Source: Candidatus Babeliales bacterium
Lineage (GTDB): Bacteria > Babelota > Babeliae > Babelales > JANWKD01
Direction of reading: 5' to 3'
DNA: 64,000 nt
Assembly: GCA_963722075.1 (NCBI GenBank)
Contig: CAVRJM010000001.1
Coordinates: 288,001-352,000 of the forward strand
The position numbers were made by a program, and so were the translations under genes. Positions 1,431-63,845 of the stretch are shown here, in pieces (the first letter of the stretch is position 1; each line of letters starts with the position of its first letter). The notes beneath the pieces are model-generated. The model was not told the DNA's origin. It made no database searches and worked only from the letters and a program-made list of their open reading frames with translations.

Positions 1431-3392
1431 ATGAAATTTATTAAAAAAAGCATAGTGCTACTTATTTTTTCTATTCTGAGTGGCTATAGTTCTATTTATC
1501 CAATGGAAGAAGAGGAAGAAAAAACAAGCGTAGAAATTGCTTATCAATTAGAGCAGGCATTTGTACAGGATCAGAACCAATTTGAAGCTTTAATAGCTTC
1601 TTTATCTCCTGATAATTTTATTGAACATTTAGCTGCTATTGCCGAAATCATACCATTACTTGAAAATTCGGATCTAATTACCCATATATGCTCCACTATT
1701 GTTACTGCAATAACTCAGCAAGAACAAAACAGTGAATTATATAATCAAGCGGTAAAAAATATGGTGCCGGTGGTAGATTTTCTTATTAGAAAAAAAGAGC
1801 TGCCGGGATTATCACAAATTATCGTTTTATATAATATTGATGAGCAATGGGCTGAAGTGTGTAATCGAATTAAAATGTGTATTAATGAATTATTGGCAGA
1901 AAATGCTTCACGTGGCTATGCACTCAAAAGAAAATCAGATACTTCTTTTTATAAAAAACCTGAGACTAAGAAGCAGAAAGCCGAAGCGGATGCGCCACCG
2001 GCTGTAATTCCATCGTTAGTAGCGTTATGTGCCTCTCACGTGGTAAACAATATACGATCAAATAGATATGAAGATAATACTTTTGTTAACAGTTTTGATT
2101 TTGCACAGGAAGCGAAATTATCTGAGATAGAAGATTCATGTCTCGCGCTTCTTTATAAAAAATCGCAAAAGAAAAATAAAAAGGGATTCGGAAAGGTTAT
2201 AAAATGGCTAAATGAGCTTAACTTGTCAGGAACTCAACGAAAAGCATTCAAAAATTATATTGTTAATAATTCAAGATCTATTCAAAGCTTACTTGTAAAG
2301 GCCCAATTACAAACAACATGCAATGAATTAAAATTGCCTTTTGATGTGACCACCATATTTGGTATGGTTCCTTCTTGCTCTGGTAACCTTATAGCGGCAC
2401 AGATTCCCGTAAAAGGAGGCCTGACTTTTTTTAATTGGAAAACAAATACCTCTGTTTTAGCTAAAAAAGAAACCCCTCACATTTTTAAAATGAAATTTAC
2501 TTCTGATGGAAAAAAATTGATTTCTTTTACTTCGTTAACGGGAGAAGCTACTATTTGTGAATGGGATTGCCAAACGGGTGAATGTATTAAAGAAAGAACC
2601 ATAAGCCTACTAGATGGTAATGGTAGATATTTTAATCTGATCGTATTGAATGCTGATAAGAAGCAAGTAATAGTAGGTTTTCCTAATGGTAACATTAAAT
2701 TATACGATATTGAAAATGATACATATGAATCTTTACCGATAACTATAAATGGGTCCATATTACTCCCAAAATTCTCCTCTAATTTATTAGAATTTTCTTC
2801 TAATGGAAAAAAATTAGTTATAAGTACTTATCTTGGCACAAAAATATATGATGTTGAAACATGGGATGAGATCGCACGATTCATCATGCCAATTAATGAA
2901 TGCATACTGAGTGAACACTTCATTGTATTTAAGACTTCTAACAATGCAAATAAAGTGTATAACTTTGAAAGAAAAGAATGTAATGATTTATTTGCAGCAG
3001 TGGATCGTTATTCTAGTAGATTGCTTGCTATTTCTCCCGATGAAACAATAATTGCAACTAATAATCGGCATTCGATATGCTTGTGGGATTGTCAAACAGG
3101 TCAGCTTTTAAAAACAATACAAGGACCAAATGAGAGTATTTATGAAGGTGCTTTTTGCGATGACGGGCAATCATTTATGTGTATATCAGGAACAAATAGC
3201 GTTTATCGTTATAATTTTATTATAAATAAAAAGCTAATGGCTGACTTAGATTTAGAAGCAGTATTATGGATTGAATATATGATACCAGCTGATTTATACG
3301 TTCGTCTTACGGAAATTTATTACAATAATACAAATTTATATGCACAATTGCCGGATGAGCTTAAAAGGCAGTTGAATGTATTGATACGGTAA
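1431..3392 (+). CDS. Secreted WD40-repeat protein with bipartite NLS and BC-box-like motif (putative effector)
   Basis: Signal peptide; repeated WD40 units (ICEWDCQTG, IKLYDIE, ICLWDCQTG); KRK-...-KKQK; PSLVALCASHV. Confidence 0.8.
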   Translation: MKFIKKSIVLLIFSILSGYSSIYPMEEEEEKTSVEIAYQLEQAFVQDQNQFEALIASLSPDNFIEHLAAIAEIIPLLENSDLITHICSTIVTAITQQEQNSELYNQAVKNMVPVVDFLIRKKELPGLSQIIVLYNIDEQWAEVCNRIKMCINELLAENASRGYALKRKSDTSFYKKPETKKQKAEADAPPAVIPSLVALCASHVVNNIRSNRYEDNTFVNSFDFAQEAKLSEIEDSCLALLYKKSQKKNKKGFGKVIKWLNELNLSGTQRKAFKNYIVNNSRSIQSLLVKAQLQTTCNELKLPFDVTTIFGMVPSCSGNLIAAQIPVKGGLTFFNWKTNTSVLAKKETPHIFKMKFTSDGKKLISFTSLTGEATICEWDCQTGECIKERTISLLDGNGRYFNLIVLNADKKQVIVGFPNGNIKLYDIENDTYESLPITINGSILLPKFSSNLLEFSSNGKKLVISTYLGTKIYDVETWDEIARFIMPINECILSEHFIVFKTSNNANKVYNFERKECNDLFAAVDRYSSRLLAISPDETIIATNNRHSICLWDCQTGQLLKTIQGPNESIYEGAFCDDGQSFMCISGTNSVYRYNFIINKKLMADLDLEAVLWIEYMIPADLYVRLTEIYYNNTNLYAQLPDELKRQLNVLIR

Positions 3393-3844
3393 AATTATAA
3401 TAGTTAAATACTTTGAATCTTTACAAATGTTATGGCATTACCTGATACCTGTGGATTACAAACTAAATGGAGATTTTATGAAATTTATTAAAAAAAGCAT
3501 AGTGCTACTTATTTTTTCTATTCTGAGTGGCTATAGTTCTATTTATTCAATGGAAGAAGAGGAAGCAAAAACGAGCGTAGAAATTGCTCAGCAACTTGAA
3601 CAAGCATTTATTCAACAAGATCAAGCGCAATTTGAAGCGATATTGGCTTCAATTACAGCTGTGGATAGTAGCTTTATTGAGCAGCTTGATCGCATTATAG
3701 AAATTATACAATCAGTTGAAAATGGTGATTTAATTACAAATTTGTGTTCAACAATTATTACCGCAATAACGCAACAAGAACAAAATAATGAAATATATCA
3801 GGATGTCTTAAAACGCATGGTGTCCGTTGTTGATTTTCTTATCA

Positions 3845-4991
3845 CAGGACTTACGCAAGAGCATAAGAGTTCTCTTCAAAAGCATAAAATAAACTAGATG
3901 GTGTAGGGGGTTTTGCGACCCGAAAGGATCTGACAGCTTGTTCAGTATTGTCGAAATTATCTTTTACCCGCCTTATGTCGGCTAAAGCATAAGCCCATAA
4001 CACGAAAAGTAAATGCGCACGCTGCATGTTAAAAGAACGCATTTGGCATTCGCTGAATCCAAGAAGTTGTTTGGCAGTTCTATTGAAGCATTCAATTTGC
4101 CAACGAATCTTATATGTAGAAATTAGCTTCTCTTTGCCGAGCTGATGGCTACTGATAAGATACATAATTTTTTCCTTATCAATTTTTAACACATAGAAAT
4201 AACAGGAAAGACCAAAAATAGTGCCGTATCCACAAGCAAATCTGTTATTTTTTTTCAAACGTAAAATTTTTTGCAATTGTCCTGTTTTATTGTTAATAGT
4301 AACAACGCGATTTCTGGGAATTTTCATCAGAAATTTTATTGACCTGTTAAAAAGCTTTGGCAGAAGGTATTCAGTCGCATAATGGGCATCTGCAATTAAC
4401 CAATTAAACCGAATTGATCCTAGAACACGCTCTATAATAATGTAAGCAATTTCACTTTTTGTCTTGTAATTGGTTTCTCCAAATACTTTGCTTATCATAA
4501 TCTCCGCATCAATCGGTATTCTTACTCTGGTATCAGTGATCATGCCAATTACAGACCGTAATCCCAAAGCTGATCTTTTCTCACTACTATCATAAACAAT
4601 TTCTAATCCTTCAATATCGTTAGCATATTGCTTATTTACGGGAGTATCATCGATTATCAAATATCTTTCGCAATTGCTAAGACTTTCTAGAGCAACATTT
4701 TGTAATGAGCTTGTTATTTCTGCTGCATTCTGGGCTGCTTTTTCAACTTCCCTATTGAGCACATCATGCATTATTCCCAGTGTTTCAGAAATATTTGTGC
4801 AAACTTTTCGTGCCGTTGTTTTTAATAAACCCATTACATATTTTGGTGTGCTTGATTCTTCATTTGTATTTGTTATTCTCATTTCGGGTGTCCTTCTTTT
4901 TTGCTTTTGTTGTTTAATTCACAAAATTGAAGCACCCTTTTTTATTTATTTCAAGTCCCAATCAGAACTTTCGACCAATGCGTAAGTCCTG
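3845..4991 (-). mobile_element. Insertion sequence, IS701-like (IS4 superfamily), about 1.15 kb
   Basis: 13-bp terminal inverted repeats CAGGACTTACGCA (3845-3857 and 4979-4991), flanked by direct repeat TTATCA (3839-3844 and 4992-4997). Confidence 0.92.
3851..4882 (-). CDS. DDE transposase, IS701-like
   Basis: IIDDT, WLIADAHY and Y-x2-RW-x-IE-x6-KQ-x-LG motifs; stop codon lies inside the left IR. Confidence 0.9.
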   Translation of the reverse strand: MRITNTNEESSTPKYVMGLLKTTARKVCTNISETLGIMHDVLNREVEKAAQNAAEITSSLQNVALESLSNCERYLIIDDTPVNKQYANDIEGLEIVYDSSEKRSALGLRSVIGMITDTRVRIPIDAEIMISKVFGETNYKTKSEIAYIIIERVLGSIRFNWLIADAHYATEYLLPKLFNRSIKFLMKIPRNRVVTINNKTGQLQKILRLKKNNRFACGYGTIFGLSCYFYVLKIDKEKIMYLISSHQLGKEKLISTYKIRWQIECFNRTAKQLLGFSECQMRSFNMQRAHLLFVLWAYALADIRRVKDNFDNTEQAVRSFRVAKPPTPSSLFYAFEENSYALA

Positions 4992-6616: not shown

Positions 6617-7441
6617 TTATATACTTTGAGTCATAGTAATTGCTGGTAAAGCGGCGTCTATTACTTTATTAAAAAGTGCATTTTCAAATTTAATAGTATT
6701 TAAATAATGTACGCATTCAGTAAATTGACCTTCTTTTGCCTTTTCTATGCCAGAATTGAGTAATTGATCCCATTCGCTTTTTTTTAGGCATACGTTCGTA
6801 GTAAATATAATAATTATTGGATCAATGGTATGATCTTTTATGCAATCCTGCATTAATGTGTATAGAAGCATGATACTCTGATTATTAAAAAGAAATTCAT
6901 CTTGAGCTAAATAGCGAGCTATTTTTAAGCTTCTATTGCAAGCAGCTATATAAAATGCCATCGCTTTAAATTCATTAGAGGATAATGATTGAGAGAGATT
7001 AGTTGGCGGAAAATATTCTTTAGTAAAATTAAGGTTGCCGGAAATAATTGCAGTTTCAATTGAGTATTTACTGCCGTTTCGTATCACATGCTGCTTTCTT
7101 GCTTCTTGCAATGCGTGCTCGCGTTGCTCTTTTTTTTCTTCATTAGGTAATAATAATTTAAGACATTTTGGTGGGCCACCATGCTTAGTGACCCATTCCA
7201 ATACATTATTTTGAGTAGCTTTTAATTGTTTATTTTCAGCTTCTAAAGAATTGATACGATCCTTTAGTACTTTGATAACGCCTAATAAGTTATTAATGGC
7301 TGGCACAGCAGCAGTGGAGTCGTCTTTATTAATAAAGAACCAATCACGCTCACTATCTGATTCATCTTCATGTTCCATGCCTGCAGAATAAGACATATGA
7401 AATACAATAAAAAAAAGTACTATTTTTTTTACGCTATTCAT
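6617..7441 (-). CDS. Secreted hypothetical protein with coiled-coil segment
   Basis: Signal peptide ending SAG|MEHED; heptad stretch LKDRINSLEAENKQLK. Confidence 0.7.
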   Translation of the reverse strand: MNSVKKIVLFFIVFHMSYSAGMEHEDESDSERDWFFINKDDSTAAVPAINNLLGVIKVLKDRINSLEAENKQLKATQNNVLEWVTKHGGPPKCLKLLLPNEEKKEQREHALQEARKQHVIRNGSKYSIETAIISGNLNFTKEYFPPTNLSQSLSSNEFKAMAFYIAACNRSLKIARYLAQDEFLFNNQSIMLLYTLMQDCIKDHTIDPIIIIFTTNVCLKKSEWDQLLNSGIEKAKEGQFTECVHYLNTIKFENALFNKVIDAALPAITMTQSI

Positions 7442-10448: not shown

Positions 10449-10787
10449 ATGAAAAAATTAATAGTAACAATTGTTCTTATGCCGGCATTATTGAGTGCGA
10501 TGCAAAAACTGCAAACGCCGCCTGCGAGCCCTAAAAAGAATGTACCTTTAGTAACGATTGGCGAATATCATAATCTTGTTCGAGCTTTTAAAAATGCGCA
10601 GACAATAGATGATATTAATGATGGGATCAATAGACTGAATGCATTAAAAATGGACGCTACAAATCAGGGACGGCAAAAGATCGCATATGATTGTGGAAGA
10701 ATGATTGGAAGATTGCAAAGTAGATCAAACAATGATTTGTTTGTTGATCAATTAAAAATGATATCTCTTCAGGAAAAGAAAAAATAG
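10449..10787 (+). CDS. Small secreted hypothetical protein
   Basis: AAAGGAA RBS; signal peptide ending LSA|MQK. Confidence 0.7.
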   Translation: MKKLIVTIVLMPALLSAMQKLQTPPASPKKNVPLVTIGEYHNLVRAFKNAQTIDDINDGINRLNALKMDATNQGRQKIAYDCGRMIGRLQSRSNNDLFVDQLKMISLQEKKK

Positions 10788-15950: not shown

Positions 15951-16046
15951 ATATAATCCTTCTTTTTAACGCTCTTTATAGGATACCTAATAATATAAAT
16001 AAGAGTAAATAAGCTGAAATAATCTCTTTTGAACCTGTAGATTTAA

Positions 16047-16074
16047 TTGACAAATACGAAATTTTATTTATACT
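16047..16074 (+). promoter_or_regulatory. Sigma70-type promoter for the J-domain array
   Basis: TTGACA (16047-16052), 16 bp spacer, TATACT (16069-16074). Confidence 0.6.
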
Positions 16075-16119
16075 AATAAGTAACTATAAATGATCTCAGA
16101 TATTTTAGGGAATAATTAT

Positions 16120-18105
16120 ATGAAAATTAAACTATTATTAGGTATCGCCTTGATGACATTGTCATTGAAGGGGATGCAAGAATCGGATAGAAGTCTTTAT
16201 TTCTATTTTGGATCAAATCCATCAGTTAAAACTGACGATATAAAAACTATCTATGAAAGTATGGCTGCTGTTTATAATCCAGCTAATTATGAGCAAAGTC
16301 CCATAAAGGCGTCAATGCATAAAGAACAAGCAGCAGAATACTTCAGTAAAATGAGCGAAGCATATGAAATCTTATCAGATGTAACAGCTCGCGCCATGTA
16401 TGATGTTTTTGGATTGGAGCGTGCGAAAGCATTTTTAATCAGAAGAGAAGGTTTATTAGCTGGTATTAAAGAAGGAACTGAAGCGTTAAAAGGTCTTATT
16501 ACTCATTGTCATATCCCACAATACTATGAACAATTAAGGACATATCATGAAAAATTATGCACGTTTTGGATTACTGAAATGGCGGGTAGCGATATTGCAA
16601 CTGAGCTCAAACGGGCTGTAGTTAATGCAACATATATGGTTATTCAATTTTTTCATACCAATTATGCACAAAATAAAAATGGTGCTGAAATAATTAAATA
16701 TATCGATCTAGCATTAAATTATGCGAATGATCTTCCTTTAAATGATGCACAGGATCTTACTATTGCTGAAGAGCTTATTCAATTAAGAAATCAGTATCTC
16801 GCTATAGAGCGTGGATCTGGAAGCAATGTAAGTGCTGCGTCTTCTTCATTACCATCAGTAATGGTTGTAAAAAGACCTTTAATAGATAAAAAAAATAAAA
16901 ACAATGCAGTAAAGCGTCTCAAAGGGGCTGATAAATCGCCTCAAAGAAATCCACCAGCTTCTAAAGAAAATGAAGAATTTGAAAGACAAGTTGAGCAGGT
17001 AGGGGAATATCTAAAGGGAAAATCTTTTTTTACTACTACTGGCACTGATGGTCTTACGGTAGAAGAATTTTATACCGAAATTAGTAAGAGATTAGTATTT
17101 ATAAATGATTTACCAAAGAGTATTTCATTAGATAATAAAAAAAAATGTGAGGATTTATTTTTAGACCTTATTAAACGAGCGTTAGATCTGTTGCGATATC
17201 AGTATCGTGAATTTAGATCAGATGCCCATAATCAAGAGGATGCTTATAAATTAGGCATAACATTATGTGAATTTGGTGCAAGGATGGTAAATCATGCAGA
17301 CTTACAATGTTATACTGATTTTTTTAAGGTACGAGAAAAAAACAAAAACGAGCGGGAAGCGGCGATAGAGAAATTTGATAAAGACCTAAAAGCTAATCAA
17401 AAATCTAGCCGAGAATTAACTAGATATATGGGATTAGAGTATTTAAATGATTTATATATTGATGCTATTTCTCCACAGTACCAGAATAAAGCATTAAAAC
17501 ATTTTTATAAGGTCATTAATCGACTATTAAAAGAAAAAAAACCGAAATGGGTAGCCAAAAGGATTTTCCAAAGAGCTCTCATGTTCAAATGGACCGATTG
17601 TTCAAAACATATAGCTGAAAGCGGTATTTTTAGAAAATTTAATAAAATTATTGCTCTTGCTGATAAATTATTTGTTTCAGATTCTGATTTGTTGCGAGAT
17701 TTTTGCAAAGGAATGAAAGAAGAATTAGATGCAGATATACCAGAATCTATTCGGAATGTTAAACAACGTATTATTAATTCTTCCAAAAAAATAAAAAAAT
17801 GGATGACAGATCCTCGGGGTCGCGTCTGCATAAAAACTGCGCAAGGCATACACTCCATTAGTGCTTCTTTAAGTATTAATAGAGATGAAAATAATGAAGA
17901 ACAAGTTTCAATTTTTATAGAATTAATTATTACCTGCATTAATAAGTTAAATAATCTATACCAACAAAATGATGCAATAGAATTGATTGATCATCTATTA
18001 ACAAATTCCATCTTTGCATCTGGCATAGTTATTAGACAATCGATTATAGACACATTTATTGATTTGAAAAAACAAATTATGGAGGAAAAGAAAAATGAAA
18101 ATTAA
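16120..18105 (+). CDS. Secreted pseudo-J-domain protein with bipartite NLS (array member 1)
   Basis: Start re-called at MKIKLL to match paralogs; YNPANY in place of HPD, then EAYEILSD and RAMYDVFG; KRP-...-KRLK. Confidence 0.8.
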   Translation: MKIKLLLGIALMTLSLKGMQESDRSLYFYFGSNPSVKTDDIKTIYESMAAVYNPANYEQSPIKASMHKEQAAEYFSKMSEAYEILSDVTARAMYDVFGLERAKAFLIRREGLLAGIKEGTEALKGLITHCHIPQYYEQLRTYHEKLCTFWITEMAGSDIATELKRAVVNATYMVIQFFHTNYAQNKNGAEIIKYIDLALNYANDLPLNDAQDLTIAEELIQLRNQYLAIERGSGSNVSAASSSLPSVMVVKRPLIDKKNKNNAVKRLKGADKSPQRNPPASKENEEFERQVEQVGEYLKGKSFFTTTGTDGLTVEEFYTEISKRLVFINDLPKSISLDNKKKCEDLFLDLIKRALDLLRYQYREFRSDAHNQEDAYKLGITLCEFGARMVNHADLQCYTDFFKVREKNKNEREAAIEKFDKDLKANQKSSRELTRYMGLEYLNDLYIDAISPQYQNKALKHFYKVINRLLKEKKPKWVAKRIFQRALMFKWTDCSKHIAESGIFRKFNKIIALADKLFVSDSDLLRDFCKGMKEELDADIPESIRNVKQRIINSSKKIKKWMTDPRGRVCIKTAQGIHSISASLSINRDENNEEQVSIFIELIITCINKLNNLYQQNDAIELIDHLLTNSIFASGIVIRQSIIDTFIDLKKQIMEEKKNEN

Positions 18106-20110
18106 ACTATTATTATCAATTCCGTTTATAGTTCTTTCTTTAAAGGGGATGCAACCATCGGATATAAGTCTTTATTTCTACTTTGGATCAAATCCAACAA
18201 TAAGCACTGACGATATAAAAACTATCTATGAAACTATGGCTCCTGTTTATAATCCGGCTAATTATGAGCAAAGTCCGGTAAAAGCTTTAATGCATAAAGA
18301 ACAAGCAGCAGAATACTTCAGTAAAATGAGCGAAGCATACGAAATTTTAAGAGATCAAACCCTGCGTCCAATGTACGATATTTTTGGGTTAAGTCGGGTG
18401 AGGGATTTTTTAAATAGAAAAAAAGATTTATTAGATGGTATAAAAAAAGGAACTGAAGCGTTAAATGGGTTTATTACTTATTGTCATATGCCACAATATC
18501 GTGAACAAATAAAACCGTATCATGAAAAATTATGCGTATATTGGATCCAACAATTAAATGATTGGTTAAATACTGATGTTGTACCCGAGCTACAGCGGGC
18601 CGTTGTCACTACAACATATAACGTTATTCAATTTCTTCACAGCAATAATCAGGTGCAAAATAGTGCTGAAATAATTAAATATATTGATCTAGCATTAAAT
18701 TATGTGAGAGAACTTCTTCCTTTAAATGATGCGCAAGATTCTATTATAGCCCAAGAGCTTACCCAATTAAGAAATCAGTATCAATCTACCCAAAGTTCGG
18801 GATCTGGTTCTGGGTGCCAAGAAAATATAGAAGCGGGAACAATTGGAACAAAAAGACCTTTTGTGTCAATAGATGACAAACATAGAGTAAATAATGCAGT
18901 AAAGCGACTAAGGGAGTCTTCTAACGAATTACGCAACGAAAGGGAAGCAGCTTATAGAAGAGCAAAGGAAATTGAAAAAGAAGTTGAGCAGATCCGAAAA
19001 TATGTGGAAGAAAAATCTTATTTTACTACAGATGGAACCAATGGGCTTACCGTAGAAGAATTTTACACTGAAATTACTAAGCGGTTAACCTTTATGAGAG
19101 ACTTTCCAGAAGGTATGAGTCAGTATATTAGATCAAAATGCGATAAGTTATTTTCAGGGCTTATTATTCAAGTCGTTGATTTGTTGAGAGATCAGTTTCA
19201 TTTATTTAAATCTGATGCACAAAATCAAGATAATGCTTATACATTGGGTGCGGCATTATACCATTTTGGTAAAGATCAGGTAACATATGATTCTTATGAA
19301 TTTCACGATTTAAGACGTGCTCTTTATTCATTTAATTATAACTACTCGCAACAAGCACGAAGATCGCTGGGAGAGCAAATAGAGAAACTTGATAAGGCTT
19401 TAAAAGATAAAGAAAAATCTGCCCTAGAATTAGCTAAGATACTTATAAATAGGTGTAAGTATGTTCATACCCTTGCTCCTCACTATCAAAATAAAGCATT
19501 AAAACAATTTTATAAGATTGCTAAACGAATGCTCGATGAAAATGAATCAGAGTATTCTGTATTGGTAGCAAAACAACTGATGTATATGGCAGCAGCTAAA
19601 TTGAAATGGGTTGATTGTTCACAAAATATAACGTTGAGTGGTATTTATAGGAAATTTAAAAAAATTAATTCTCTTTTTGAAAAATCATTTATTCCTGACA
19701 TGCGAGAAATGCGTGAATTTTGTAATGCAATGAAAGAGAAATTAAATACAGATGATGCAGAATCTATAACTACGGTTAAACAAACTATTATTAGCTCTTC
19801 GGTTAAATTTAAAAAACTAACAAATATTTTTAGTAGTAATCTAAAAATTCAACGAGGTTTACATACCCTTCGCGGTTATATGGGGCCATCTGAAAGGGCT
19901 CAATCGCAAACACCTTTTACTACTTTTATCGCATTGCTTTCTAATTGTGTTCAAAAGTTAATTAAGTCTGATCAACAAAATGACGCTTTGGAATTGATTG
20001 AGAACATATTAAAATACCCAGTATTACAATACTCAATTAGCCAACCGACTAAAGAACAATTCCTTGATTTAAAAAAACAAATTATGGGGGAAAAGAAAAA
20101 TGAAAATTAA
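18095..20110 (+). CDS. Secreted pseudo-J-domain protein with bipartite NLS (array member 2)
   Basis: Alignable to member 1 over its full length; YNPANY; KRP-...-KRLR. Confidence 0.8.
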   Translation: MKIKLLLSIPFIVLSLKGMQPSDISLYFYFGSNPTISTDDIKTIYETMAPVYNPANYEQSPVKALMHKEQAAEYFSKMSEAYEILRDQTLRPMYDIFGLSRVRDFLNRKKDLLDGIKKGTEALNGFITYCHMPQYREQIKPYHEKLCVYWIQQLNDWLNTDVVPELQRAVVTTTYNVIQFLHSNNQVQNSAEIIKYIDLALNYVRELLPLNDAQDSIIAQELTQLRNQYQSTQSSGSGSGCQENIEAGTIGTKRPFVSIDDKHRVNNAVKRLRESSNELRNEREAAYRRAKEIEKEVEQIRKYVEEKSYFTTDGTNGLTVEEFYTEITKRLTFMRDFPEGMSQYIRSKCDKLFSGLIIQVVDLLRDQFHLFKSDAQNQDNAYTLGAALYHFGKDQVTYDSYEFHDLRRALYSFNYNYSQQARRSLGEQIEKLDKALKDKEKSALELAKILINRCKYVHTLAPHYQNKALKQFYKIAKRMLDENESEYSVLVAKQLMYMAAAKLKWVDCSQNITLSGIYRKFKKINSLFEKSFIPDMREMREFCNAMKEKLNTDDAESITTVKQTIISSSVKFKKLTNIFSSNLKIQRGLHTLRGYMGPSERAQSQTPFTTFIALLSNCVQKLIKSDQQNDALELIENILKYPVLQYSISQPTKEQFLDLKKQIMGEKKNEN

Positions 20111-22160
20111 ACTATTATTAGTAATTCCACTTATAATTCTTTCTTTAAAGGGGATGCAAGAATCTGATATAAGTCTATATTCCTATTTAAATGTTCAAAA
20201 TAATGCAACTAGAGAAGAAATAAAAAAAGCATATAAAGATTGTTCTCTTATTTATCATCCAGATAAATATGAACAAAGCTCTATACGCAATCGTATGTCA
20301 AAGCAAGAAGCTGAAGAGCATTTCAAAAAAATTAAAGAAGTATATGAAATTTTAAGTAATAATAAAACACGAAAGATGTATGATGATTTTGGTTTAAAAT
20401 ACGTCCGAAGTTATATTGCTCAGGAAGAAAAGAACCGGCGTGCTGCTGAAGAACCCATGGCCCAGCAACAATCTACCCAAACAGCGTTCACCGCAAAAAG
20501 GTCATCACAAACTCCTAAACAAGACGAAGCCAAGTCAAAATCGGAAGAAGATATAAAGAATGTTCTTGAAGATCTTGAGGCGGGAACTAAGATCATTAAT
20601 AACTTAATTACTGAATTTTATACCTATAGTTTCAGGTTATCAGAATTAGAAGGATATTATAACGAAAAAATTCAAGAATGTATTTCATTATTAAAAATGC
20701 CCAAATACTCAATTATTAGAGACGATATTAAGAAAACAATAATAGATGTATCACAATTATTCATTGGTGTATTACTATTAAAAATGAAAGAAGATCAAAA
20801 TTTGGCTCGTAATGTACTACTCCATGCAGAAGAAATTATGCAGTCTTTATACTTAGGAGTAAATGATTACAGGTTTTTTGCAGATGCTGTAACGCGCGCC
20901 CGAGAAAAATTGGCACCCAGATCGCAACCATATACTCAACAACATACTGCTTTTCAAACAAAACGACCGTCACCACAGGGTCCTAAACAAGCTGATCCTA
21001 AGCGCGTAAAAACAACTGAACCTACTGTTGATTCGAAGTTTAAACAAAGAATCGAATTTATAATTGAAGAACATAAACGTTTTAGCGATTATTTAGCGCA
21101 AGCAAGTTTTTTGAAAGAAAACGTTTTAACCTATCAAGAATTTTCCAATATGGTACAGAAAAAAATTGATTTTATTAAACCATATATAACAGGAATTCCA
21201 GAAAATTTAATTTTAGGATATAAGTTGCGTAATAGCATGTTGAGACATATTTTCCAGGCCATTTTATTATTAAAAGAAAGATACACTGAATTTAAAGAAG
21301 TTGATTGGATCATGGCCTGTGGATGGGGTAAAAATTTATGTAGTTCAGCGTTTTTTATTTATTCAATTTCAGATGATGAAGACAAAGCGGTTGTTAAGGA
21401 GCTTTCTTTGTTAAATTCTTATTTTGATAAAGAGATATTGCATTCAAAAATTAGGAATATAGATTATCACCTTCGTTCAAAAAGCTCGAATATAATTGAA
21501 GATGCGCGATTTGTACTTCACGATTATGAAAACAAAATAATTTCAGCAGATCCTATAATGCAAGATAAAGCCGCAAAGCATTTTTATAAATTTGCCAAGA
21601 AGTTATTAAAGCAATCAGAACGAGCTCTAGCAGTTGAGTTGTTAAATAGGGCACTATACTTGAGATGGTCAAATATAGATGGTATTTACCAAACAATTGA
21701 GAAAATAAAAAATCTACTTACAAAGCTAAATTATTATTCGATTATTGTAACGAATTTTTGTCAAAGTAATAGAAAAAAATTGGAAGAAAATTCGCCAGAT
21801 GCAGCGCTTGCTGTTCAACAAAATATTATTAATAATAATGATCGATTGAAAAATTCGCTTTCATGCTGTGTTATTCATCGATTTCAGAATTTCATATATA
21901 GTACTTTTACAACCACAAACCCTGATTTACTGAACCTTTATTATGATTGTATTCAGTTGTTAATTAATTCTCATTTTTTAAATGAAGCTTTAGAGCTCAT
22001 TAATATCGTAATTTGTCAATACGATCTGGATAAAGAAACACAGGATCGCTTTAAAGAACAATTTGATTTAATTAATCAAATGCAAGAATTAGATAAACAA
22101 CTTGAAAGTCAGCCACCAATGGATTTCAATGATATTAAAGATTTTTTAAGTAAAGAATAA
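20100..22160 (+). CDS. Secreted J-domain protein (intact HPD) with bipartite NLS (array member 3)
   Basis: LYSYLNV...EIKKAYK...YHPDKY...YEILS...RKMYDDFG; KRPSPQGPKQADPKRVK. Confidence 0.85.
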   Translation: MKIKLLLVIPLIILSLKGMQESDISLYSYLNVQNNATREEIKKAYKDCSLIYHPDKYEQSSIRNRMSKQEAEEHFKKIKEVYEILSNNKTRKMYDDFGLKYVRSYIAQEEKNRRAAEEPMAQQQSTQTAFTAKRSSQTPKQDEAKSKSEEDIKNVLEDLEAGTKIINNLITEFYTYSFRLSELEGYYNEKIQECISLLKMPKYSIIRDDIKKTIIDVSQLFIGVLLLKMKEDQNLARNVLLHAEEIMQSLYLGVNDYRFFADAVTRAREKLAPRSQPYTQQHTAFQTKRPSPQGPKQADPKRVKTTEPTVDSKFKQRIEFIIEEHKRFSDYLAQASFLKENVLTYQEFSNMVQKKIDFIKPYITGIPENLILGYKLRNSMLRHIFQAILLLKERYTEFKEVDWIMACGWGKNLCSSAFFIYSISDDEDKAVVKELSLLNSYFDKEILHSKIRNIDYHLRSKSSNIIEDARFVLHDYENKIISADPIMQDKAAKHFYKFAKKLLKQSERALAVELLNRALYLRWSNIDGIYQTIEKIKNLLTKLNYYSIIVTNFCQSNRKKLEENSPDAALAVQQNIINNNDRLKNSLSCCVIHRFQNFIYSTFTTTNPDLLNLYYDCIQLLINSHFLNEALELINIVICQYDLDKETQDRFKEQFDLINQMQELDKQLESQPPMDFNDIKDFLSKE

Positions 22161-22189: not shown

Positions 22190-23845
22190 ATGCGAAGGTT
22201 ATTTATTCTCGTATTACTGCACATTACCTGTTATGCCATGGAAGATCCTTTTCATAATTATACATTAGAAGAGCAATCCAAAAAAGAATTAATTATTACC
22301 ATGGAAATGTATGCTAATAATTTAAAGCATTATATTTCCCTTTATTATGATAATCAGCTCAGTTGTACACAACTTGAAGATTATTATAAGTCGCTACACG
22401 AATGGTTATATAAACAAGGTGAGTTATGCAGAGGTACGCAAATTGCGCCTATTTGTGCAGAGGAAATAATCAAAAATGGTTTTAGCATCATTAAGCTATT
22501 TGCATCACATAAAGAAGCGGAAATGCTTGAAAAAGCGGTTTACTATATTGATTCTCTAGTAAAATATATACGCCAAGGAGATTTGCGATTACATGAATTG
22601 GATCAATTAAAAAACAAGCTCAGTCAAAAATTAAAGGCATCAGTTCAAAAAGGATTGTTAAAAAGAAAAGCTACGCAAAGTCCTTGCTTATCTGTTAAAA
22701 AAAATAAAGTTGATGATGTAAATTTTTTGAAGGAAAAAAATGCTGCATTAAAGAATTACTTAAAAAGAACCTCTTATAATTTGAATGAATTTTGTAGTAC
22801 GGTTACCATATCATTAGATACTATTATCGATTTATTTGATGATCTTCCTGAGCAAAAAGAAAAAGAAGAAAAGGGTTTAAGAGCACAAATACTCGCTAGT
22901 ATTTGTAGAGCAATTTCTTTATTTGAATATCAATTAGAAAAATTTACTCATTATAATAGTAAAACTGCATTTCAATGCATTATTTATATATGTCAACGTG
23001 GATTACCATTTAACTCGATATGGACGCAACTGCAAGAAACGCAAGAAATTTATAAATATAAATTACAATGTATTGAAATAAAAGAACAACAAAGAAAAAA
23101 AGTAGAAGATCTAATAGATGCAATGGGCCAACAATTTCCAATCAGCAAAACGAGCCCGGATCTTAAGAATATTGCAGATGTTTTAATGGCGGAGTGCGGA
23201 AATAATGATGATCTTTCCTTGGATTATCAACAAAAAGCTCTAAAGCATTTTTATAAAGTAACAAAAAAGTTATTCCAACAAAATGATATTGAACGATTTA
23301 CAACGCTGATTAATTGTGTTCTTTCTCAGGCATGGATGGAGGATCTTCATATCATTGATCGTTTTACAAAGATTTGTGATTTAAAAAATAAAAATGACGA
23401 AGCATATCAATGGGTACTAAAATTCAATGCAATTATAAAAGAACATTTTAAGAATGCGCAGGATATTGAATCTTTAAAAAATGCTTTAAACACATTACTT
23501 AATTATCAATCAGATGCTTTTCAGGTAATCAGTCGAATTTCTACCATGATTATCGTTCCTGAAGTGCTTAATGGAAGTGTTACCATAGGCATTAAAGAGG
23601 ATGATCAGCAAAAAAATGATGCAAAATCAATGATTCTTAATCTCTATTATGATGGGGTACAAAAATTAATGGAAGCAGGCTTGTTTGAAGAGGCCGGAAT
23701 TCTTATTAATAGTATAGCAGCTCAGGGTGATGAACTAAAAATAAATGAATTAAGAAACCAACTTGGTGATTGTATTATGGCATCATATGAAGCTACGCTT
23801 TATTTAAATTTACCTGATGATGATGCCGATACTATTATTTTGTAA
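22190..23845 (+). CDS. Secreted paralog lacking the J-domain, with bipartite NLS (array member 4)
   Basis: Shares QKALKHFYK and LNLYYD with members 1-3; KRKATQSPCLSVKKNK. Confidence 0.75.
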   Translation: MRRLFILVLLHITCYAMEDPFHNYTLEEQSKKELIITMEMYANNLKHYISLYYDNQLSCTQLEDYYKSLHEWLYKQGELCRGTQIAPICAEEIIKNGFSIIKLFASHKEAEMLEKAVYYIDSLVKYIRQGDLRLHELDQLKNKLSQKLKASVQKGLLKRKATQSPCLSVKKNKVDDVNFLKEKNAALKNYLKRTSYNLNEFCSTVTISLDTIIDLFDDLPEQKEKEEKGLRAQILASICRAISLFEYQLEKFTHYNSKTAFQCIIYICQRGLPFNSIWTQLQETQEIYKYKLQCIEIKEQQRKKVEDLIDAMGQQFPISKTSPDLKNIADVLMAECGNNDDLSLDYQQKALKHFYKVTKKLFQQNDIERFTTLINCVLSQAWMEDLHIIDRFTKICDLKNKNDEAYQWVLKFNAIIKEHFKNAQDIESLKNALNTLLNYQSDAFQVISRISTMIIVPEVLNGSVTIGIKEDDQQKNDAKSMILNLYYDGVQKLMEAGLFEEAGILINSIAAQGDELKINELRNQLGDCIMASYEATLYLNLPDDDADTIIL

Positions 23846-26698: not shown

Positions 26699-27556
26699 AT
26701 GAATAGTAAATTATTAATAATATGTTCATTGCTCATTAATTGTTCAATGCACGCGGCAATGATACGCGTTTTACCGGTGACGCTGTTTCAAGGGGAATGG
26801 TATGGACTATTTGCTCATGAATCAAAAGAGCCTGATTTAAATAAAGGATGGACCGACTTTAAGGGATTAAAAGATGATACTCGCAACAATGAAGAACAGG
26901 CCATTGATATTGTTAATAAGCAAACGAATTATACTTTGGCCATAACGCAAGAATATTTTCAGAAATGGGTTGTTGGCGTGGAGCTAGAAAAAAGTTTGTT
27001 ATATGTGATTAAATTCCAGCTGCCAAAAGATTATACATTAGACAAAATACAAGAAACATTAATTCTACTTACACCTAAACAATTCCAATATGATCTATAT
27101 GCATTTATCCCTATTAACAAAATTATTAACAATAAAAAAATATCCCTCTCACTACGAAGAAAAGAAGATATTATTGCTGGAAGAGAAATTGCCTTAATGA
27201 TTAATAATGCACAAATTAATGACGATATCAAAAATATTTTGCAACTTAATTGGTCCAAAATACGTCCAGAGATTATAAAATTAGATTGGAAAAATAAAGG
27301 AATTAGTAGTGAACTCCCCATTGAGGCTAAAAAACCAACCAGCACAAAACCAATGGTGAAAAGCCCAATAGAACGAGAATTGATGAGACTTAAATCAAGC
27401 TTAAATGATTTATATAATGCATTACCCACGCTATCCTATCCTGAGTATGAACCAGAAATATATAAGAAAAAAGAAATGAAAGAACTGGAAGAGCCTGAAG
27501 AAGAAGAAAGCAGAGGTTGGCTCAGTTTGTTCCAGTGGGCTGGGCAATTTCAATAA
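26699..27556 (+). CDS. Secreted Nudix-like (degenerate) protein (array member 3)
   Basis: VLPVT...WYGLFAHE...GWTDFKG; acidic C-terminal tail. Confidence 0.65.
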   Translation: MNSKLLIICSLLINCSMHAAMIRVLPVTLFQGEWYGLFAHESKEPDLNKGWTDFKGLKDDTRNNEEQAIDIVNKQTNYTLAITQEYFQKWVVGVELEKSLLYVIKFQLPKDYTLDKIQETLILLTPKQFQYDLYAFIPINKIINNKKISLSLRRKEDIIAGREIALMINNAQINDDIKNILQLNWSKIRPEIIKLDWKNKGISSELPIEAKKPTSTKPMVKSPIERELMRLKSSLNDLYNALPTLSYPEYEPEIYKKKEMKELEEPEEEESRGWLSLFQWAGQFQ

Positions 27557-38672: not shown

Positions 38673-39548
38673 ATGAATTATATTCATCGTTTTTGGAAAT
38701 GGATGCATCGTCCTAATAAATCAAAGATAGCACAATATATTGAAACAATTGTTATTATTGTTCCTATTGCATTTGTAATACGAACTTATTTTTATGGGTT
38801 GTATCAAGTTCCAACAGGTTCTATGGAAACTACTATGCTTGTTGGTGAGCGTTTTTTTGCCGATAAGTTTACTATTCTTTTTACGCCACTTAAACACGGT
38901 GATATTATTACCTTTAATGACCCAAAATTTGATTATTCGGATAATTATTATATGGATCTTTTCCAGCGCTATGTATGGGGTCCTTCTAATTGGACCAAAC
39001 GGTTGATCGGATTACCCGGAGATCATATTAAAGGCGTAATGGAAGATGGAAAGCCGGTTGTTTATCGAAATGGTCAAAAACTTGATGAGCCATATGTTAA
39101 TAAATTTCCGTTAATTGGTGTTTATGTAGAAGGCAAAATGCCGCCGTGGGAAGTACGCTCATATGATGAAGCGTATAGTTTTGAACAACAACCATATTAT
39201 AGAATGAGTCCGGTTGATGTAGAACTAGCTAAAAAATTGATGGAACGATATGAGCAAGAATGGATGAGAAAACCATATACACCAACCTATGATGGGTATC
39301 GTAATATTGATGAATTTGATGTACATTTGGGCGCTCAAGAAATATGGGTAATGGGTGATAATCGAAAAGGAAGCTATGATTCACGCTATTGGGGACCATT
39401 AGATATAAAATTAGTACACGGCAAAATTCTTATTCGCTTATGGTCAATCGATAGTAATGAATCATGGTTTATTAGTGATCTTATTAAACATCCAATCGAT
39501 TTTTGGACCCGCGTGCGCTGGAGTCGATTCTTCCAATTTGTATATTAA
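38673..39548 (+). CDS. lepB: Signal peptidase I
   Basis: PTGSME, KRLIGLPGD, MGDNR..SYDSRYWG. Confidence 0.95.
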   Translation: MNYIHRFWKWMHRPNKSKIAQYIETIVIIVPIAFVIRTYFYGLYQVPTGSMETTMLVGERFFADKFTILFTPLKHGDIITFNDPKFDYSDNYYMDLFQRYVWGPSNWTKRLIGLPGDHIKGVMEDGKPVVYRNGQKLDEPYVNKFPLIGVYVEGKMPPWEVRSYDEAYSFEQQPYYRMSPVDVELAKKLMERYEQEWMRKPYTPTYDGYRNIDEFDVHLGAQEIWVMGDNRKGSYDSRYWGPLDIKLVHGKILIRLWSIDSNESWFISDLIKHPIDFWTRVRWSRFFQFVY

Positions 39549-43210: not shown

Positions 43211-43735
43211 ATGATTAAAAAATTTGGTATGGTAATGATATTAAGTGGTTGTGTGATGATGAATATGCAGGGTATGAATGTTTTCAATCCAGAAGAGAAA
43301 GCTGATTTAGAAAAACTAAATTCTGCTAAGGAACAAGAAGCTACTGCAGTGGCGCAAGATGTTGTACAGAAAAAAGATACTAAAAAAAAGTTGGATAATA
43401 AATGTGAGCAAGAAGGTGCCACTGCTAAATATGAAGCATTAAAAAGAGGGGATTGGGATATTTTTAATGAAATATCAGAGAAAGATCCTAATTTAGATTG
43501 CGATTTGCATAAAGCATTAAAAGAAGGAGAGATAAAAATCGCTCAAGAAATTGATAATCGTGATAATTACCGAAAAGCGATTATTAAAAATTATGAAGCT
43601 AACCGGTGGAATCCATTTATGTTACATGTTTTATCAGTTGCAACTGGAGCCGCTATGGTAGGAAGTGCCTGGTTATTTAAAGTATATATACTTGGCGGTG
43701 CTGCAGTACAAGCAACTAATGGTACCGGAAATTAA
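43211..43735 (+). CDS. Secreted hypothetical protein with C-terminal TM helix
   Basis: Signal peptide ending MQG|MN; hydrophobic C-terminal segment. Confidence 0.65.
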   Translation: MIKKFGMVMILSGCVMMNMQGMNVFNPEEKADLEKLNSAKEQEATAVAQDVVQKKDTKKKLDNKCEQEGATAKYEALKRGDWDIFNEISEKDPNLDCDLHKALKEGEIKIAQEIDNRDNYRKAIIKNYEANRWNPFMLHVLSVATGAAMVGSAWLFKVYILGGAAVQATNGTGN

Positions 43736-57228: not shown

Positions 57229-58302
57229 CTATTTATTCCACTTATAGTAGGTATAATAAGCCAAGGATCCTAATAAAGCCGTTCCGCTAAGCATATCTAT
57301 GGCGTTTCTAAAGATTCCTCTTTTAGTGCTCGGGCAAGCTTTTATGCGAGCTTCTACTTCTTCTACTGATGGTTGAAATGGGTGTAAATCCTTCTCTAAA
57401 TCTATTAGGGTCTCTTGTTGAGGGTTGATAATTTTTGAGAGATCGTTATGGTCACGTTCTTCTCGAATTGTAATTTTATCTTGGTAAGGAAGATTTAATT
57501 TTTTATAAATTACGTTCATTATGCCAACGGTTTCATGACGTTTTTCTCTGGTCATACTGTATAAAATATTTACATGGGAAATATATCTGTTATTAGTTTC
57601 AATTAAATAAACATTATTATCTTCTCGATTTTTAATAAGAGCGCAATATAATTTACGGGCATCATTAATAGGTGTTTCAGGATCATTTTGATCATGCAAA
57701 ATAATGACTGGTATGTTTGGTGATAGTTTCGATGCCGATGAAAGTGCTTGTTTGCCCCATGGATTATAAGTAGGAAAGAATGCTTTAGTTACCCACGGAA
57801 TCCAAAAACGGGCGAAGGGAAGGTAAGTAATTGGTTTTATCATTCTTTCAGCATTATGCAATATAGCATTATTGCCATTGCCAAGTACAGCTTGTAAAAC
57901 AACGGCAGCAACCTTTTTATCTTGATTTATTTGTTCTTTTTGAGCTAACCAATTGATGATTGTTGCAGTTCCTTGAGAAAAACCAAATAATACTTTTTTG
58001 CCTACGAGTTCTGGTTTAGTTTTTTCAAAATTCCAAGCAAAGTTTTTTAATTGATCATTAAAATGCCTAATACAATTTCCCTGGCCTAAATCAATTTTAT
58101 ATCCTTTTATTGTGTTGCATCTTTTAATGGGAAGATATAAAAGAGCATTATCATCAAAATCCTCGCCGCCGCATCCATTTTGCCCGTGTAGAGTAATATA
58201 GCCAAGAACTGTTTTTTCAATTACTTCTTCTTTTTCCATACAATTGATAGAGGTAAATAAAAATAATGGTATTGAAAAGAAAAATACATAAATAATTTTC
58301 AT
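57229..58302 (-). CDS. Secreted alpha/beta hydrolase with C-terminal membrane anchor
   Basis: LHG oxyanion motif, GFSQG nucleophile elbow, NDP Asp, SH His; signal peptide INC|MEK; TM followed by KWNK. Confidence 0.78.
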   Translation of the reverse strand: MKIIYVFFFSIPLFLFTSINCMEKEEVIEKTVLGYITLHGQNGCGGEDFDDNALLYLPIKRCNTIKGYKIDLGQGNCIRHFNDQLKNFAWNFEKTKPELVGKKVLFGFSQGTATIINWLAQKEQINQDKKVAAVVLQAVLGNGNNAILHNAERMIKPITYLPFARFWIPWVTKAFFPTYNPWGKQALSSASKLSPNIPVIILHDQNDPETPINDARKLYCALIKNREDNNVYLIETNNRYISHVNILYSMTREKRHETVGIMNVIYKKLNLPYQDKITIREERDHNDLSKIINPQQETLIDLEKDLHPFQPSVEEVEARIKACPSTKRGIFRNAIDMLSGTALLGSLAYYTYYKWNK

Positions 58303-62813: not shown

Positions 62814-62831
62814 TTAAGGGAGTATGAAATA

Positions 62832-63845
62832 ATGAAGAACTTTAAAAGACTTATAGCCATAGGGTCTATTAGTTTACTAGGTACTATATATAGCATGCAG
62901 AAGCCATTAGCAAAAGAATATGAAGCATCAGGAAAAAAGGAGCTTCAAGAGGCTTTTAAGCAAGCATTGCTTTATGAAAAAGAGGCGACTGAGCGTGCTC
63001 GAGAGACAAAAATAGAGGCTGAGAGACAAAGAAGAGAGCAAGAGAAAACTCGTGAAATGGCAGAGTGGCTTCGCGCCGAAGAAGAGCGAGCTGAGGTAAG
63101 AAAATTAGAAGAGAGGCGTCGCGAACAACAACGTGCCCGAGAAAAAAGGGAAGAAGAAAAAAAGTTGCAGCGAGAAGAAAAAATGGCTGAAATGAAAAAG
63201 CATATTCATAATTGGGAGCAATTTCTTGAAGAAAGTAGAGGTAGGGCTGAACAGAAAACAGGAATCACCTTGGAAGAAATAGAGCAAGAGGTAACTCGAG
63301 AGGCAGAAGAAAAAAGAAAAATTGAAGAACTAACATTACAAGCAGATGAAGCAAGAAGGGCGGCAGAGGAAGAGCGACGAAGAGCTGAACGAGAGGAAAG
63401 TCGAAAAGCATTAGCATATGAAAAAATGCAAGCTGAACTAAAGCAAGCAGAGCAGCAATGGATGCTTGAGCAATTAGCAGCGGAAAAATTAAAAATAGAA
63501 CAAGAACAAGAACGGCAAAAGCGCGCTGAACAAATACGAAGACTGCCTCAAGGAGAAAGAAAAGAAGCTACAAAAAGAATGAGGCGGGAAATAGAAAAAG
63601 AAAAATCGCGAGAAAGAGGAAGAAAAGCTGAAGAGCGAAAAAGATTAGAAGAAAGAGCTGCTGAATTGGCTGATATTTTGGAATTGGCCAAAACGTCAGA
63701 AGAAAGAGAAGAAGAACAACAGCAAGCAGAACTTGAAGCGCGATTAGAACAGTTACGACCAAGAGGTAATAAGCCTAATTTGCCTCAATTACTCGAACAA
63801 TTAAGGAATAAGCTTACTATGATTACTTCTACCTTGTCTCGTTAA
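62832..63845 (+). CDS. Secreted E/R/K-rich long helical protein with C-terminal leucine helix
   Basis: Signal peptide IYS|MQK; about 280 aa of alternating E and R/K patches; LEQLRNKLTMI. Confidence 0.75.
   Translation: MKNFKRLIAIGSISLLGTIYSMQKPLAKEYEASGKKELQEAFKQALLYEKEATERARETKIEAERQRREQEKTREMAEWLRAEEERAEVRKLEERRREQQRAREKREEEKKLQREEKMAEMKKHIHNWEQFLEESRGRAEQKTGITLEEIEQEVTREAEEKRKIEELTLQADEARRAAEEERRRAEREESRKALAYEKMQAELKQAEQQWMLEQLAAEKLKIEQEQERQKRAEQIRRLPQGERKEATKRMRREIEKEKSRERGRKAEERKRLEERAAELADILELAKTSEEREEEQQQAELEARLEQLRPRGNKPNLPQLLEQLRNKLTMITSTLSR

Follow-up and report, generated by a model that had tools for sequence, protein, structure and literature searches.

Secreted proteins of unrelated families encoded in a 64-kb stretch of a Candidatus Babeliales genome (contig C1, positions 288001-352000; hereafter the window, meaning this whole stretch, in whose own coordinates its genes are given) carry a Met residue immediately behind the signal peptide, and the locus raises the question of whether this Met junction is genuine, on which proteins it occurs and what it could serve. 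An earlier note on this DNA had taken it for a candidate code of effector export. Here, the Met-junction pattern is confirmed to be real and far above chance, and the sequences directly establish the motif and where it sits, its specificity for one class, its spread among lineages and the fact that orthologues retain it. It marks a large, fast-evolving class of about 130-200 of the 1445 open reading frames (ORFs) of the genome, and only some of the related lineages share this class. Roughly one gene in seven probably encodes an exported, host-directed protein whose released form begins like a host-made protein, and we tentatively propose that the mature N-terminus of these candidate effectors is under selection and most likely proof against host N-degron pathways.

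The genome (1,466,044 bases in 4 contigs, about 35% G+C) is placed in the Dependentiae/Babeliales by its GyrA, whose best 40 or so matches, mostly from that group, show 67-81% identity, against 54% or less in other phyla; the 40 members of the phylum used for comparison all belong to one order. It was translated by calling the longest ORFs greedily, each from its first ATG; some starts come out too far upstream, and several paralogues classed as having no signal peptide proved to carry the junction. Class M denotes the signal-peptide ORFs with Met right after the predicted cut, and its size varies with the definition, from 132 with a Met-blind predictor to 174-217 in motif-based strict sets and 207 by a tripeptide. 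The cleavage predictor is a crude heuristic, not SignalP, that sees residues up to -1 only and is blind to the + side, and the 555 signal-peptide-like ORFs it returns include membrane proteins and some cytoplasmic false positives. With this predictor, the genome-wide enrichment of Met at +1 and of Glu, Gln, Asp or Asn at +2 that the earlier note had asked to be tested is strong. Met stands at +1 of 132 of the 555 sites (23.8%), against 0-27 at each of 17 other offsets, and the residue that follows these 132 Mets is Glu in 51, Gln in 18, Asn in 16, Asp in 13, Lys in 9 and His in 5, and Leu, Ile, Phe or Tyr in only 8. Predictor-free counts give the same picture: in all 1445 ORFs, with no signal-peptide model, Met makes up 3.5-4.5% of residues 18-22 versus 1.9% overall, and at residues 15-34 there are 210 occurrences of the tripeptide [AGSCT]M[EDQN], spread over 207 ORFs, where 28.6 are expected from its rate beyond residue 75 (about 7-fold), with a hydrophobic core upstream in 198 of the 207. 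The same pipeline run on 200 kb of Escherichia coli K-12 found Met at +1 in 0 of 29 sites and a tripeptide ratio of 1.2. Since the 132 class-M ORFs fall into 102 sequence families, 70 of them singletons, paralogy is not the explanation of the pattern.

Aligned on the Met, the 174 strict cases show Leu (64), Ser (24), Ile (21) and also Cys at -3, Tyr, Phe, His, Trp or Asn at -2, and Ala (84), Ser (43) or Gly (32) at -1, and on the + side Glu is enriched 7.8-fold at +2 and Pro 5-fold at +4 (positions are numbered with the Met as +1). The consensus is L/S/I-x-A/S/G↓M-E(>Q,N,D)-x-P/S, where the arrow marks the putative cut. High-confidence signal peptides outside the class (121) have mixed +1 residues (Ser, Gln, Asp, Thr, Asn), with Glu at +2 only 1.5-fold and Pro 1.7-2.1-fold across +3 to +6. 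NatB is the eukaryotic N-terminal acetyltransferase whose substrates begin with Met-Asp, Met-Glu, Met-Asn or Met-Gln, and 98 of the 132 junctions would present such an N-terminus, as had been supposed, provided that the cut precedes the Met.

Class-M signal peptides have a median of 21 residues and an n-region of 5 residues with 2 Lys or Arg, and they display the Sec-type architecture of charged n-region, apolar h-region and small residues at -3 and -1. A distinct type of signal peptide was rejected, as length, n-region and hydrophobicity are the same as in other signal peptides. Tat signals were rejected as well (RR-x-hydrophobic-hydrophobic in only 2 of 202 strict class-M ORFs), and so were type IV prepilin leaders, since the hydrophobic stretch precedes the cut and polar residues follow it; true prepilin-like N-termini (QGFTLIEL) belong to separate genes. 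Signal peptidase II lipoproteins do not account for a class defined by Met at +1, and among the eleven junctions first listed in the window only that of gene 43211 has a lipobox. A nucleotide-level motif was discarded because codon use at Ala -1 and Glu +2 is near the genome average, and a C-terminal sorting signal because the last 12 residues lack positional enrichment, except for Cys at -4. Along the chromosome, class-M genes are clustered (57 adjacent pairs versus 22.8 expected); about ten consecutive small ones (92-188 residues), most of them mutually dissimilar, lie at C1:154560-159603, a run that looks like a nursery of fast-diverging secreted proteins.

In the window, the junctions and the contrasting features are as follows.

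1431..1505, + strand: signal peptide (1431-1502) and junction Met codon (1503-1505), SIYP↓MEEEE, of the WD40 protein 1431-3392
3478..3552, + strand: signal peptide and junction SIYS↓MEEEE of a paralogue of 1431 truncated by an insertion sequence, ORF 3427-3897
7376..7441, - strand: signal peptide and junction Met, YSAG↓MEHED, of gene 6617-7441
10449..10502, + strand: signal peptide and junction Met, LLSA↓MQKLQ, of the 112-residue orphan 10449-10787
16120..16176, + strand: signal peptide with its junction Met (SLKG↓MQESD) in the first secreted J-domain protein, which runs to 18105
18095..18151, + strand: signal peptide with its junction Met (SLKG↓MQPSD) in the second secreted J-domain protein, which runs to 20110
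20100..20156, + strand: signal peptide with its junction Met (SLKG↓MQESD) in the third secreted J-domain protein, which runs to 22160
22190..22240, + strand: signal peptide and junction Met, TCYA↓MEDPF, of a 551-residue orphan (to 23845)
26699..26749, + strand: INCS↓MHAAM, a junction absent from the first list, gene 26699-27556
27569..27622, + strand: FSHH↓MNAWQ, a junction absent from the first list, gene 27569-28318
34425..37751, + strand: BatC, BatD and BatE, with the ordinary sites VRA↓VF, LSA↓HQ and ATA↓QE, an internal contrast
38673..39548, + strand: signal peptidase I (Peptidase_S26), the presumed cutting enzyme, one of two genome copies
43211..43276, + strand: NMQG↓MNVFN, a doubtful member, with the lipobox LSGC upstream of the Met
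58237..58302, - strand: signal peptide with its junction Met (SINC↓MEKEE) in the alpha/beta-hydrolase-like protein 57229-58302
62832..62897, + strand: signal peptide and junction Met, TIYS↓MQKPL, of a 337-residue orphan (to 63845)

All eleven junctions of the earlier note are present in the sequence as it wrote them, and a purine-rich stretch resembling a Shine-Dalgarno (SD) site lies upstream of the first ATG in each of the eleven genes; positions 3478 and 16120 are taken here as the ORF starts, the caller extending both upstream. With the Met-blind predictor, a cut just before the Met is the top site for five of the eleven and a lower-ranked candidate for three more. At 1431 the -1 residue is Pro, unusual for a signal peptidase I site, and Ser takes its place in the 3478 paralogue; at 27569 the -1 residue is an atypical His, and the paralogue 24525 reads AYG↓NAWQ with the Met absent. 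The lipobox of 43211 makes it more likely a lipoprotein cut before the Cys. A same-genus orthologue of gene 6617-7441 retains LNG↓MESPED. The orphans 62832 and 22190 carry the junction despite having no match in 120 other genomes of the order, the same genus included (E at most 1e-6).

Several arrangements around these genes deserve mention. The second WD40 copy (3427-6595) is interrupted by an insertion sequence with a DDE transposase (3851-4882, minus strand), so that the N-terminal piece 3427-3897 retains the signal peptide and ↓MEEEE and the propeller part forms ORF 5435-6595. The three secreted J-domain proteins (671, 671 and 686 residues) are tandem paralogues at 16090-22160, in which each following start overlaps the preceding stop by 11 bases; a canonical DnaJ lies nearby (10839-11969, minus strand). 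Four tandem paralogues at 24525-28318, one of them with a NADAR domain (25440-26687), share a motif behind the signal peptide (NAWQLRLIPLT and similar), which a Met precedes in two and not in one, a junction switch within the family. Positions 32444-40061 hold the BatA-E-like operon (VWA, VWA, TPR, BatD, TPR-SH3) and, behind it on one and the same strand, genes for an M23 peptidase, for signal peptidase I and for a rhodanese lipoprotein; the second Peptidase_S26 signal peptidase I gene is at C1:1297849-1298550. A type II/IV secretion ATPase is present as two neighbouring ORFs, the MshEN N-domain (41369-41911) and the T2SSE core (41917-43095), and the doubtful gene 43211 stands directly downstream.

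To see which proteins bear the junction, Pfam was searched with the 160 signal-peptide ORFs in C1:1-450,000, of which 75 have the junction and 85 do not. A eukaryote-type domain is present in 19 of the 75 versus 3 of the 85 (Fisher p=6e-5), and envelope housekeeping families in 0 of the 75 versus 10 of the 85 (Fisher p=0.0017). The claim that the junction marks effector-like rather than housekeeping exported proteins is borne out by these counts, and a +1 Met equally frequent among housekeeping exported proteins is not what they show. The same holds inside the window, where the envelope proteins named as lacking the junction do lack it: BatC, BatD and BatE have ordinary sites, and the FKBP and rhodanese proteins look like lipoproteins. 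Class M comprises 50 ORFs with no match, 9 with ankyrin repeats, 4 with C2H2 zinc fingers, 3 with J-domains, 2 with WD40 and 1 with Sel1, in addition to a beta-helix, a metallophosphatase and a weak hydrolase match (one ORF each) and two polytopic membrane proteins that are chance hits. Among the others, 55 of the 85 have no match, and the remainder include FKBP, thioredoxins, PBP, TonB, DivIC, M48, BatC, hydrolases and several cytoplasmic false positives. Of the earlier interpretation, the marking of an effector-like class and the NatB-class residues stood. The Met code is not exclusive, as some other secreted effector-like proteins have ordinary sites. A 221-residue protein with a DOT1 histone-methyltransferase domain (E 2e-20; C1:434868-435530, minus strand) has a signal-peptide-like N-terminus and no Met junction.

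The Cys enrichment at -4 in the C-terminal scan led, unplanned, to a further link. CaaX-like ends are found in 9 of 217 class-M proteins (about 7 families) versus 3 of 1228 other ORFs (p=5e-6), and they read CLLS, CLIS, CLLN, CIIN, CLVS (twice), CILF, CVLW and CILM. The class-M CaaX proteins are located at:

C1:812523-826230, several clustered
C1:980472-982682
C1:1328018-1328227
C3:20045-20461
C4:15299-15535

CaaX boxes are substrates of eukaryotic cytosolic prenyltransferases, and their presence is a separate line of sequence evidence that part of class M acts at host membranes from the cytosolic side; the class-M ends point to prenylation by host enzymes, in the way that the CaaX end of Legionella AnkB is described as farnesylated by host enzymes in the portion of PMC2916131 drawn on here.

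A Met at this place could also be a start codon, past or present, and three readings of that kind have to be weighed against the gene starts and the homologues. That the internal Mets are the true starts, and the signal peptides a chance translation of AT-rich upstream DNA, is the least probable of them, and very unlikely. Such DNA does yield peptides rich in Ile, Leu, Phe and Lys, and the caller takes the first ATG. However, among the 132 class-M genes SD-like sites of at least 4 bases precede 59% of the first ATGs versus 1% of the internal Mets, 88% of which have no SD-like site at all, the same figures as for the +1 codon in signal peptides outside class M. An n-region, an h-region and the -3/-1 pattern are all there, the three J-domain paralogues differ by substitutions that conserve hydrophobicity, all of 11 orthologues of the hydrolase 57229-58302 carry their own signal peptide of similar length, and the AT-rich relatives G007 and G016 lack the pattern in the same pipeline. 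Two products per gene, with the internal ATG as a second start for a cytoplasmic form without signal peptide, is only slightly less remote: the codon is always ATG and is often followed by an A-rich codon (GAA 41, CAA 15, AAT 13 of 132), but the lack of SD-like sites before it stands against this, and a cytoplasmic ankyrin, WD40 or CaaX protein would have no obvious use in the bacterium. Additionally, Glu follows the junction Met in 51 of 132 (39%) versus 5-6% after real starts, where Lys, Asn and Ile lead. The placement of the SD-like sites together with this second-residue bias makes mis-called starts and routine dual initiation unlikely. The third reading sees fossil start codons, namely formerly cytoplasmic or acquired genes that gained a signal peptide by 5' extension into the AT-rich DNA upstream and kept an initiator Met that is functionless at the junction. 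It accords with a secreted J-domain paralogue whose junction, NWA↓MEQEEPTYYDILGV, lies within 2-3 residues of the canonical DnaJ start, with two more paralogues without signal peptide that begin no more than 5-10 residues from the junction, and with the many class-M genes that are young orphans. We nevertheless consider it improbable in view of the Glu excess and of a cut site that abuts the Met exactly. The related proposal of the earlier note, that ready-made signal cassettes were prepended to intact genes, fails on the same Glu excess and on the absence of SD-like sites before the internal ATG; among 233 class-M genes, shared 5' DNA without mature homology was found in only 15 pairs (24-117 bases, mostly upstream of the coding part), and signal-peptide regions are as diverse as mature parts, with no common cassettes.

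The homologues speak to the fossil start codon as well. The hydrolase has homologues in 29 of 121 genomes, and its orthologous clade (11 rows, 100/100 support) retains ↓Met-Glu in 8 of 11 at 25-43% identity, across families f1, f5, f11 and f19 (our handles for the GTDB families), with signal peptides and linkers that show no sequence relationship. In the tree, each of the three Met-less rows is nested beside a Met-Glu row; signal peptides also occur in the sister subfamily (14 rows), where the sites are ordinary and Met is found in 0 of 14. On the simplest reading of these sequences, Met-Glu is old in the clade, having arisen in an already secreted lineage, and has been lost two or three times, which argues against a fossil start codon in this family. 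In 101 of 201 homologue pairs that cover each other by at least 60%, the junction Met is conserved; it is the best of 33 N-terminal columns, of which the others are kept at 0.24-0.46 and those within 12 residues of the Met at 0.24-0.42. Its retention is 17 of 20 at 50-90% identity, 22 of 41 at 35-50% and 62 of 140 below 35%. Where the partner belongs to a genome in which the rule is absent or weak, it is class M in 1 of 20 pairs, and 17 of the 20 keep a signal peptide without Met, again unlike what fossil starts would leave. The junction Met is favoured, not fixed, and lineage-dependent.

The lineage dependence was traced in 18 other genomes of the order, from each of which 37-200 kb was sampled and run through the identical pipeline; the small samples (G005, G009, G010 and G021) carry little weight. 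Counts of Met at +1 are:

G001 (f1), positive: 17/77
G003 (f1), positive: 23/97
G020 (f17), positive: 24/92
G022 (f19), positive: 14/73
G014 (f11), positive: 13/64
G053 (f12), positive: 6/43
G125 (f3), positive: 11/42
G059 (f14), positive: 14/72
G006 (f3), none: 0/29
G007 (f4), none: 0/22
G024 (f21), none: 0/44
G016 (f13), none: 0/31
G009 (f6), none: 0/20 (small sample)
G054 (f6), weak: 7/94
G008 (f5), weak or too small: 3/40
G021, weak or too small: 1/16
G010, weak or too small: 1/16
G005, weak or too small: 2/19

The rule is thus found in 8 of the 18 sampled Dependentiae genomes, with tripeptide ratios of 3.6-10.4; its distribution is patchy, and family f3 holds both states. Positive genomes are larger on average (1.1-1.8 Mb versus 0.8-1.2 Mb). 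GC content was rejected as the cause (0.28-0.40 in positive and 0.30-0.47 in negative genomes). A second signal peptidase I as a dedicated enzyme was likewise discarded, since the rule does not go with the number of copies (1-4 matches), G014 being positive although it has one and G007 negative although it has two. The secretin is no correlate either, since 16 of 16 genomes have it, with or without the rule.

Based on these findings, we propose that the junction gives host-directed effectors an N-terminus proof against host N-degron pathways. An ordinary Sec-type signal peptide would be followed by a signal peptidase I site (Leu, Ser or Ile at -3; Ala, Ser or Gly at -1) lying directly before the selected Met-Glu(>Gln, Asn, Asp)-x-Pro/Ser, and the cut would leave an exported protein that starts with Met-Glu or the like. 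This new N-terminus would resemble a product of the eukaryotic cytosol and would be read by no known N-degron pathway; Met followed by Glu, Asp, Asn or Gln would be the class least dependent on shielding, the host NatB may acetylate it, and effectors leaving the bacterium via Sec would survive in the host. We infer the cleavage before the Met, the delivery to the host cytosol and the stabilisation. According to the part of PMC11735805 on which we rely, basic, bulky hydrophobic, Asp, Glu, Asn, Gln and Cys N-termini feed the Arg/N-degron pathway, which Met followed by a hydrophobic residue also enters; unacetylated small N-terminal residues are degrons too, signal-peptidase products can become N-degron targets, and NatB shields only a subset of its substrates. 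As the other N-termini are degrons, Met-Glu would by elimination be the safest for a protein arriving after translation, and the scarcity of Leu, Ile, Phe and Tyr at +2 fits degron avoidance.

We place this proposal somewhat short of an even chance and no higher, because the motif exceeds what degron avoidance needs; its extension, with Glu far above Asp at +2 and Pro at +4, fits a recognition site better. Further observations weigh against it. NatB acts mainly on ribosomes. Ordinary sites are found in effector-like proteins such as DOT1, PLA2_B, one ankyrin and one J-domain protein. In rule-positive genomes the partner of a class-M protein is itself class M in only 74 of 181 pairs, with a base rate of 27% among signal-peptide ORFs, and the Met state is labile within families, all-M clusters being only 14 of 42. 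In the genome G054, 94 of 177 ORFs are signal-peptide-like, a large secretome, and yet only 7 have Met at +1. The heuristic predictor is wrong on known E. coli sites, DegP among them, and the runs listed for positions 15900-24000 of the window are 5 DNA metagenome runs and no RNA run. [quoted passage not shown]

Two alternatives accept the secreted protein as it stands and explain the motif differently. Mature Met-Glu-x-Pro may be an export tag that is read in the periplasm and sorts proteins for a further transport step through the outer membrane or the host-vacuole membrane, which is the main rival and which we regard as unlikely on balance, although it deserves serious weight and is not mutually exclusive with protection from N-degron pathways. 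In its favour, the motif extends over several fixed positions, is missing from signal peptides outside class M, is class-specific inside one genome, and is lineage-specific as a lineage-specific reader would predict; signal peptides being alike between the classes, the information lies after the cut. Yet no candidate reader was found, secretins occur in 16 of 16 genomes regardless of the rule, signal peptidase I copy number is uncorrelated, other secreted effector-like proteins lack the motif, and we know of no N-terminal signal for type II secretion. By analogy, Plasmodium effectors are told from vacuole residents by their mature N-termini, as covered in the portion of PMC10653839 consulted, and type II secretion is the only system detected in Babela in the sections of PMC4378268 considered. 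Alternatively, Met-Glu may be merely the best substrate of the local signal peptidase I, towards which fast-evolving proteins drift while conserved ones keep inherited sites. Lineage-specific +1 preferences do exist, the Bacteroidetes Q-rule being one (in the part of PMC5837995 available to us), the genome has two signal peptidase I genes, and the rule is strongest in young proteins; against this, non-M substrates with diverse +1 residues are equally common in the genome (121 at high confidence), copy number is unlinked to the rule, and the link to eukaryote-type domains and CaaX ends is left unexplained. We give it little chance, as little as the fossil start codons, against which further stand the hydrolase clade with its secreted, Met-free sister subfamily, the rule-negative homologues with signal peptides, the equally large and almost Met-free secretome of G054 and the lack of shared 5' modules.

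A bolder combination, which we put forward as doubtful, is that signal peptidase serves as a tool of molecular mimicry, with hundreds of Sec effectors, in part of a phylum for which no injection apparatus is reported, beginning Met-Glu, Met-Gln, Met-Asn or Met-Asp, the single type of N-terminus that would be spared by eukaryotic N-degron pathways and open to capping by host NatB, and M-E-x-P perhaps acting also as an export ticket; if true, it would be a bacterial counterpart of the Plasmodium export motif PEXEL and a sequence code listing the host-cytosolic effectors of an uncultured phylum. The Dependentiae are widespread protist parasites. A countable junction provides a sequence-based list of candidate host-directed proteins for unculturable genomes and a testable idea of how signal-peptidase products escape host N-degron pathways, and it warns that cuts in this phylum may be misplaced by signal-peptide predictors whose training came from model bacteria. 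With both states in a single GTDB family, f3 offers a natural contrast for finding a reader or a host factor.

A literature search, with supplements and subscription journals outside its reach, found no description of a Met-first rule, and it found no report of acetylation or stabilisation of a bacterial protein arriving post-translationally. The word "methionine" occurs 0 times in the main texts of two genome papers on cultured Dependentiae (PMC6561590, PMC4378268). These papers report many signal-peptide-bearing ankyrin proteins, up to 44% of genes with signal peptides and no injection system (PMC6561590 and, in the portion drawn on, PMC4378268).

Among known systems, the eukaryotic NatB class is matched by the 98 of 132 junctions that would expose Met-Glu, Met-Asp, Met-Asn or Met-Gln, although the usual targets of NatB are mainly nascent chains, whereas class-M proteins would arrive post-translationally. 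Lipoprotein sorting rules concern signal peptidase II substrates with a lipidated Cys at +1; the +2 rule and the Bacteroidetes lipoprotein export signal resemble the present case in that residues after the cut decide the destination, but class M lacks Cys at +1. In Legionella, effectors are injected by the type IV system Dot/Icm and have no cleaved signal peptide. Its AnkB (F-box and CaaX; the part of PMC2916131 cited above) resembles class M in combining eukaryote-type domains with a C-terminal CaaX in an amoeba-associated bacterium, whereas class-M proteins are equipped with signal peptides of the Sec type and the phylum has no reported injection system in the consulted sections of PMC4378268.

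The closest bacterial likeness is the Bacteroidetes Q-rule, wherein Gln at +1 is cyclised to pyroglutamate (PMC10653852 and part of PMC5837995), also a lineage-restricted preference for one +1 residue after the signal peptidase I cut, detected by genome-wide statistics and patchy. However, the residue here is Met followed by Glu, Gln, Asn or Asp, with Gln at +1 in only 23 of 555 sites and Met in 132 of 555. The Q-rule spans most substrates in any compartment, as set out in the part of PMC5837995 available, whereas the Met rule covers an effector-like subset and skips envelope housekeeping; no modifying enzyme is known for the Met junction (no glutaminyl cyclase search was made). As the defining features of the Q-rule fail, in that the residue is not Gln and not all compartments are covered, the Met junction is a different rule of the same kind. 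With Plasmodium PEXEL it would share a motif that follows the targeting stretch for the endoplasmic reticulum or Sec and forms the cleavage site, with a mature N-terminus (x-E/Q/D in PEXEL) marking host-exported proteins, so far as the consulted portion of PMC10653839 describes it. PEXEL belongs to a eukaryotic parasite in which plasmepsin V cuts RxLxE/Q/D in the endoplasmic reticulum, while the present case has a bacterium, presumably signal peptidase I, and Met; the likeness is one of analogy, not homology.

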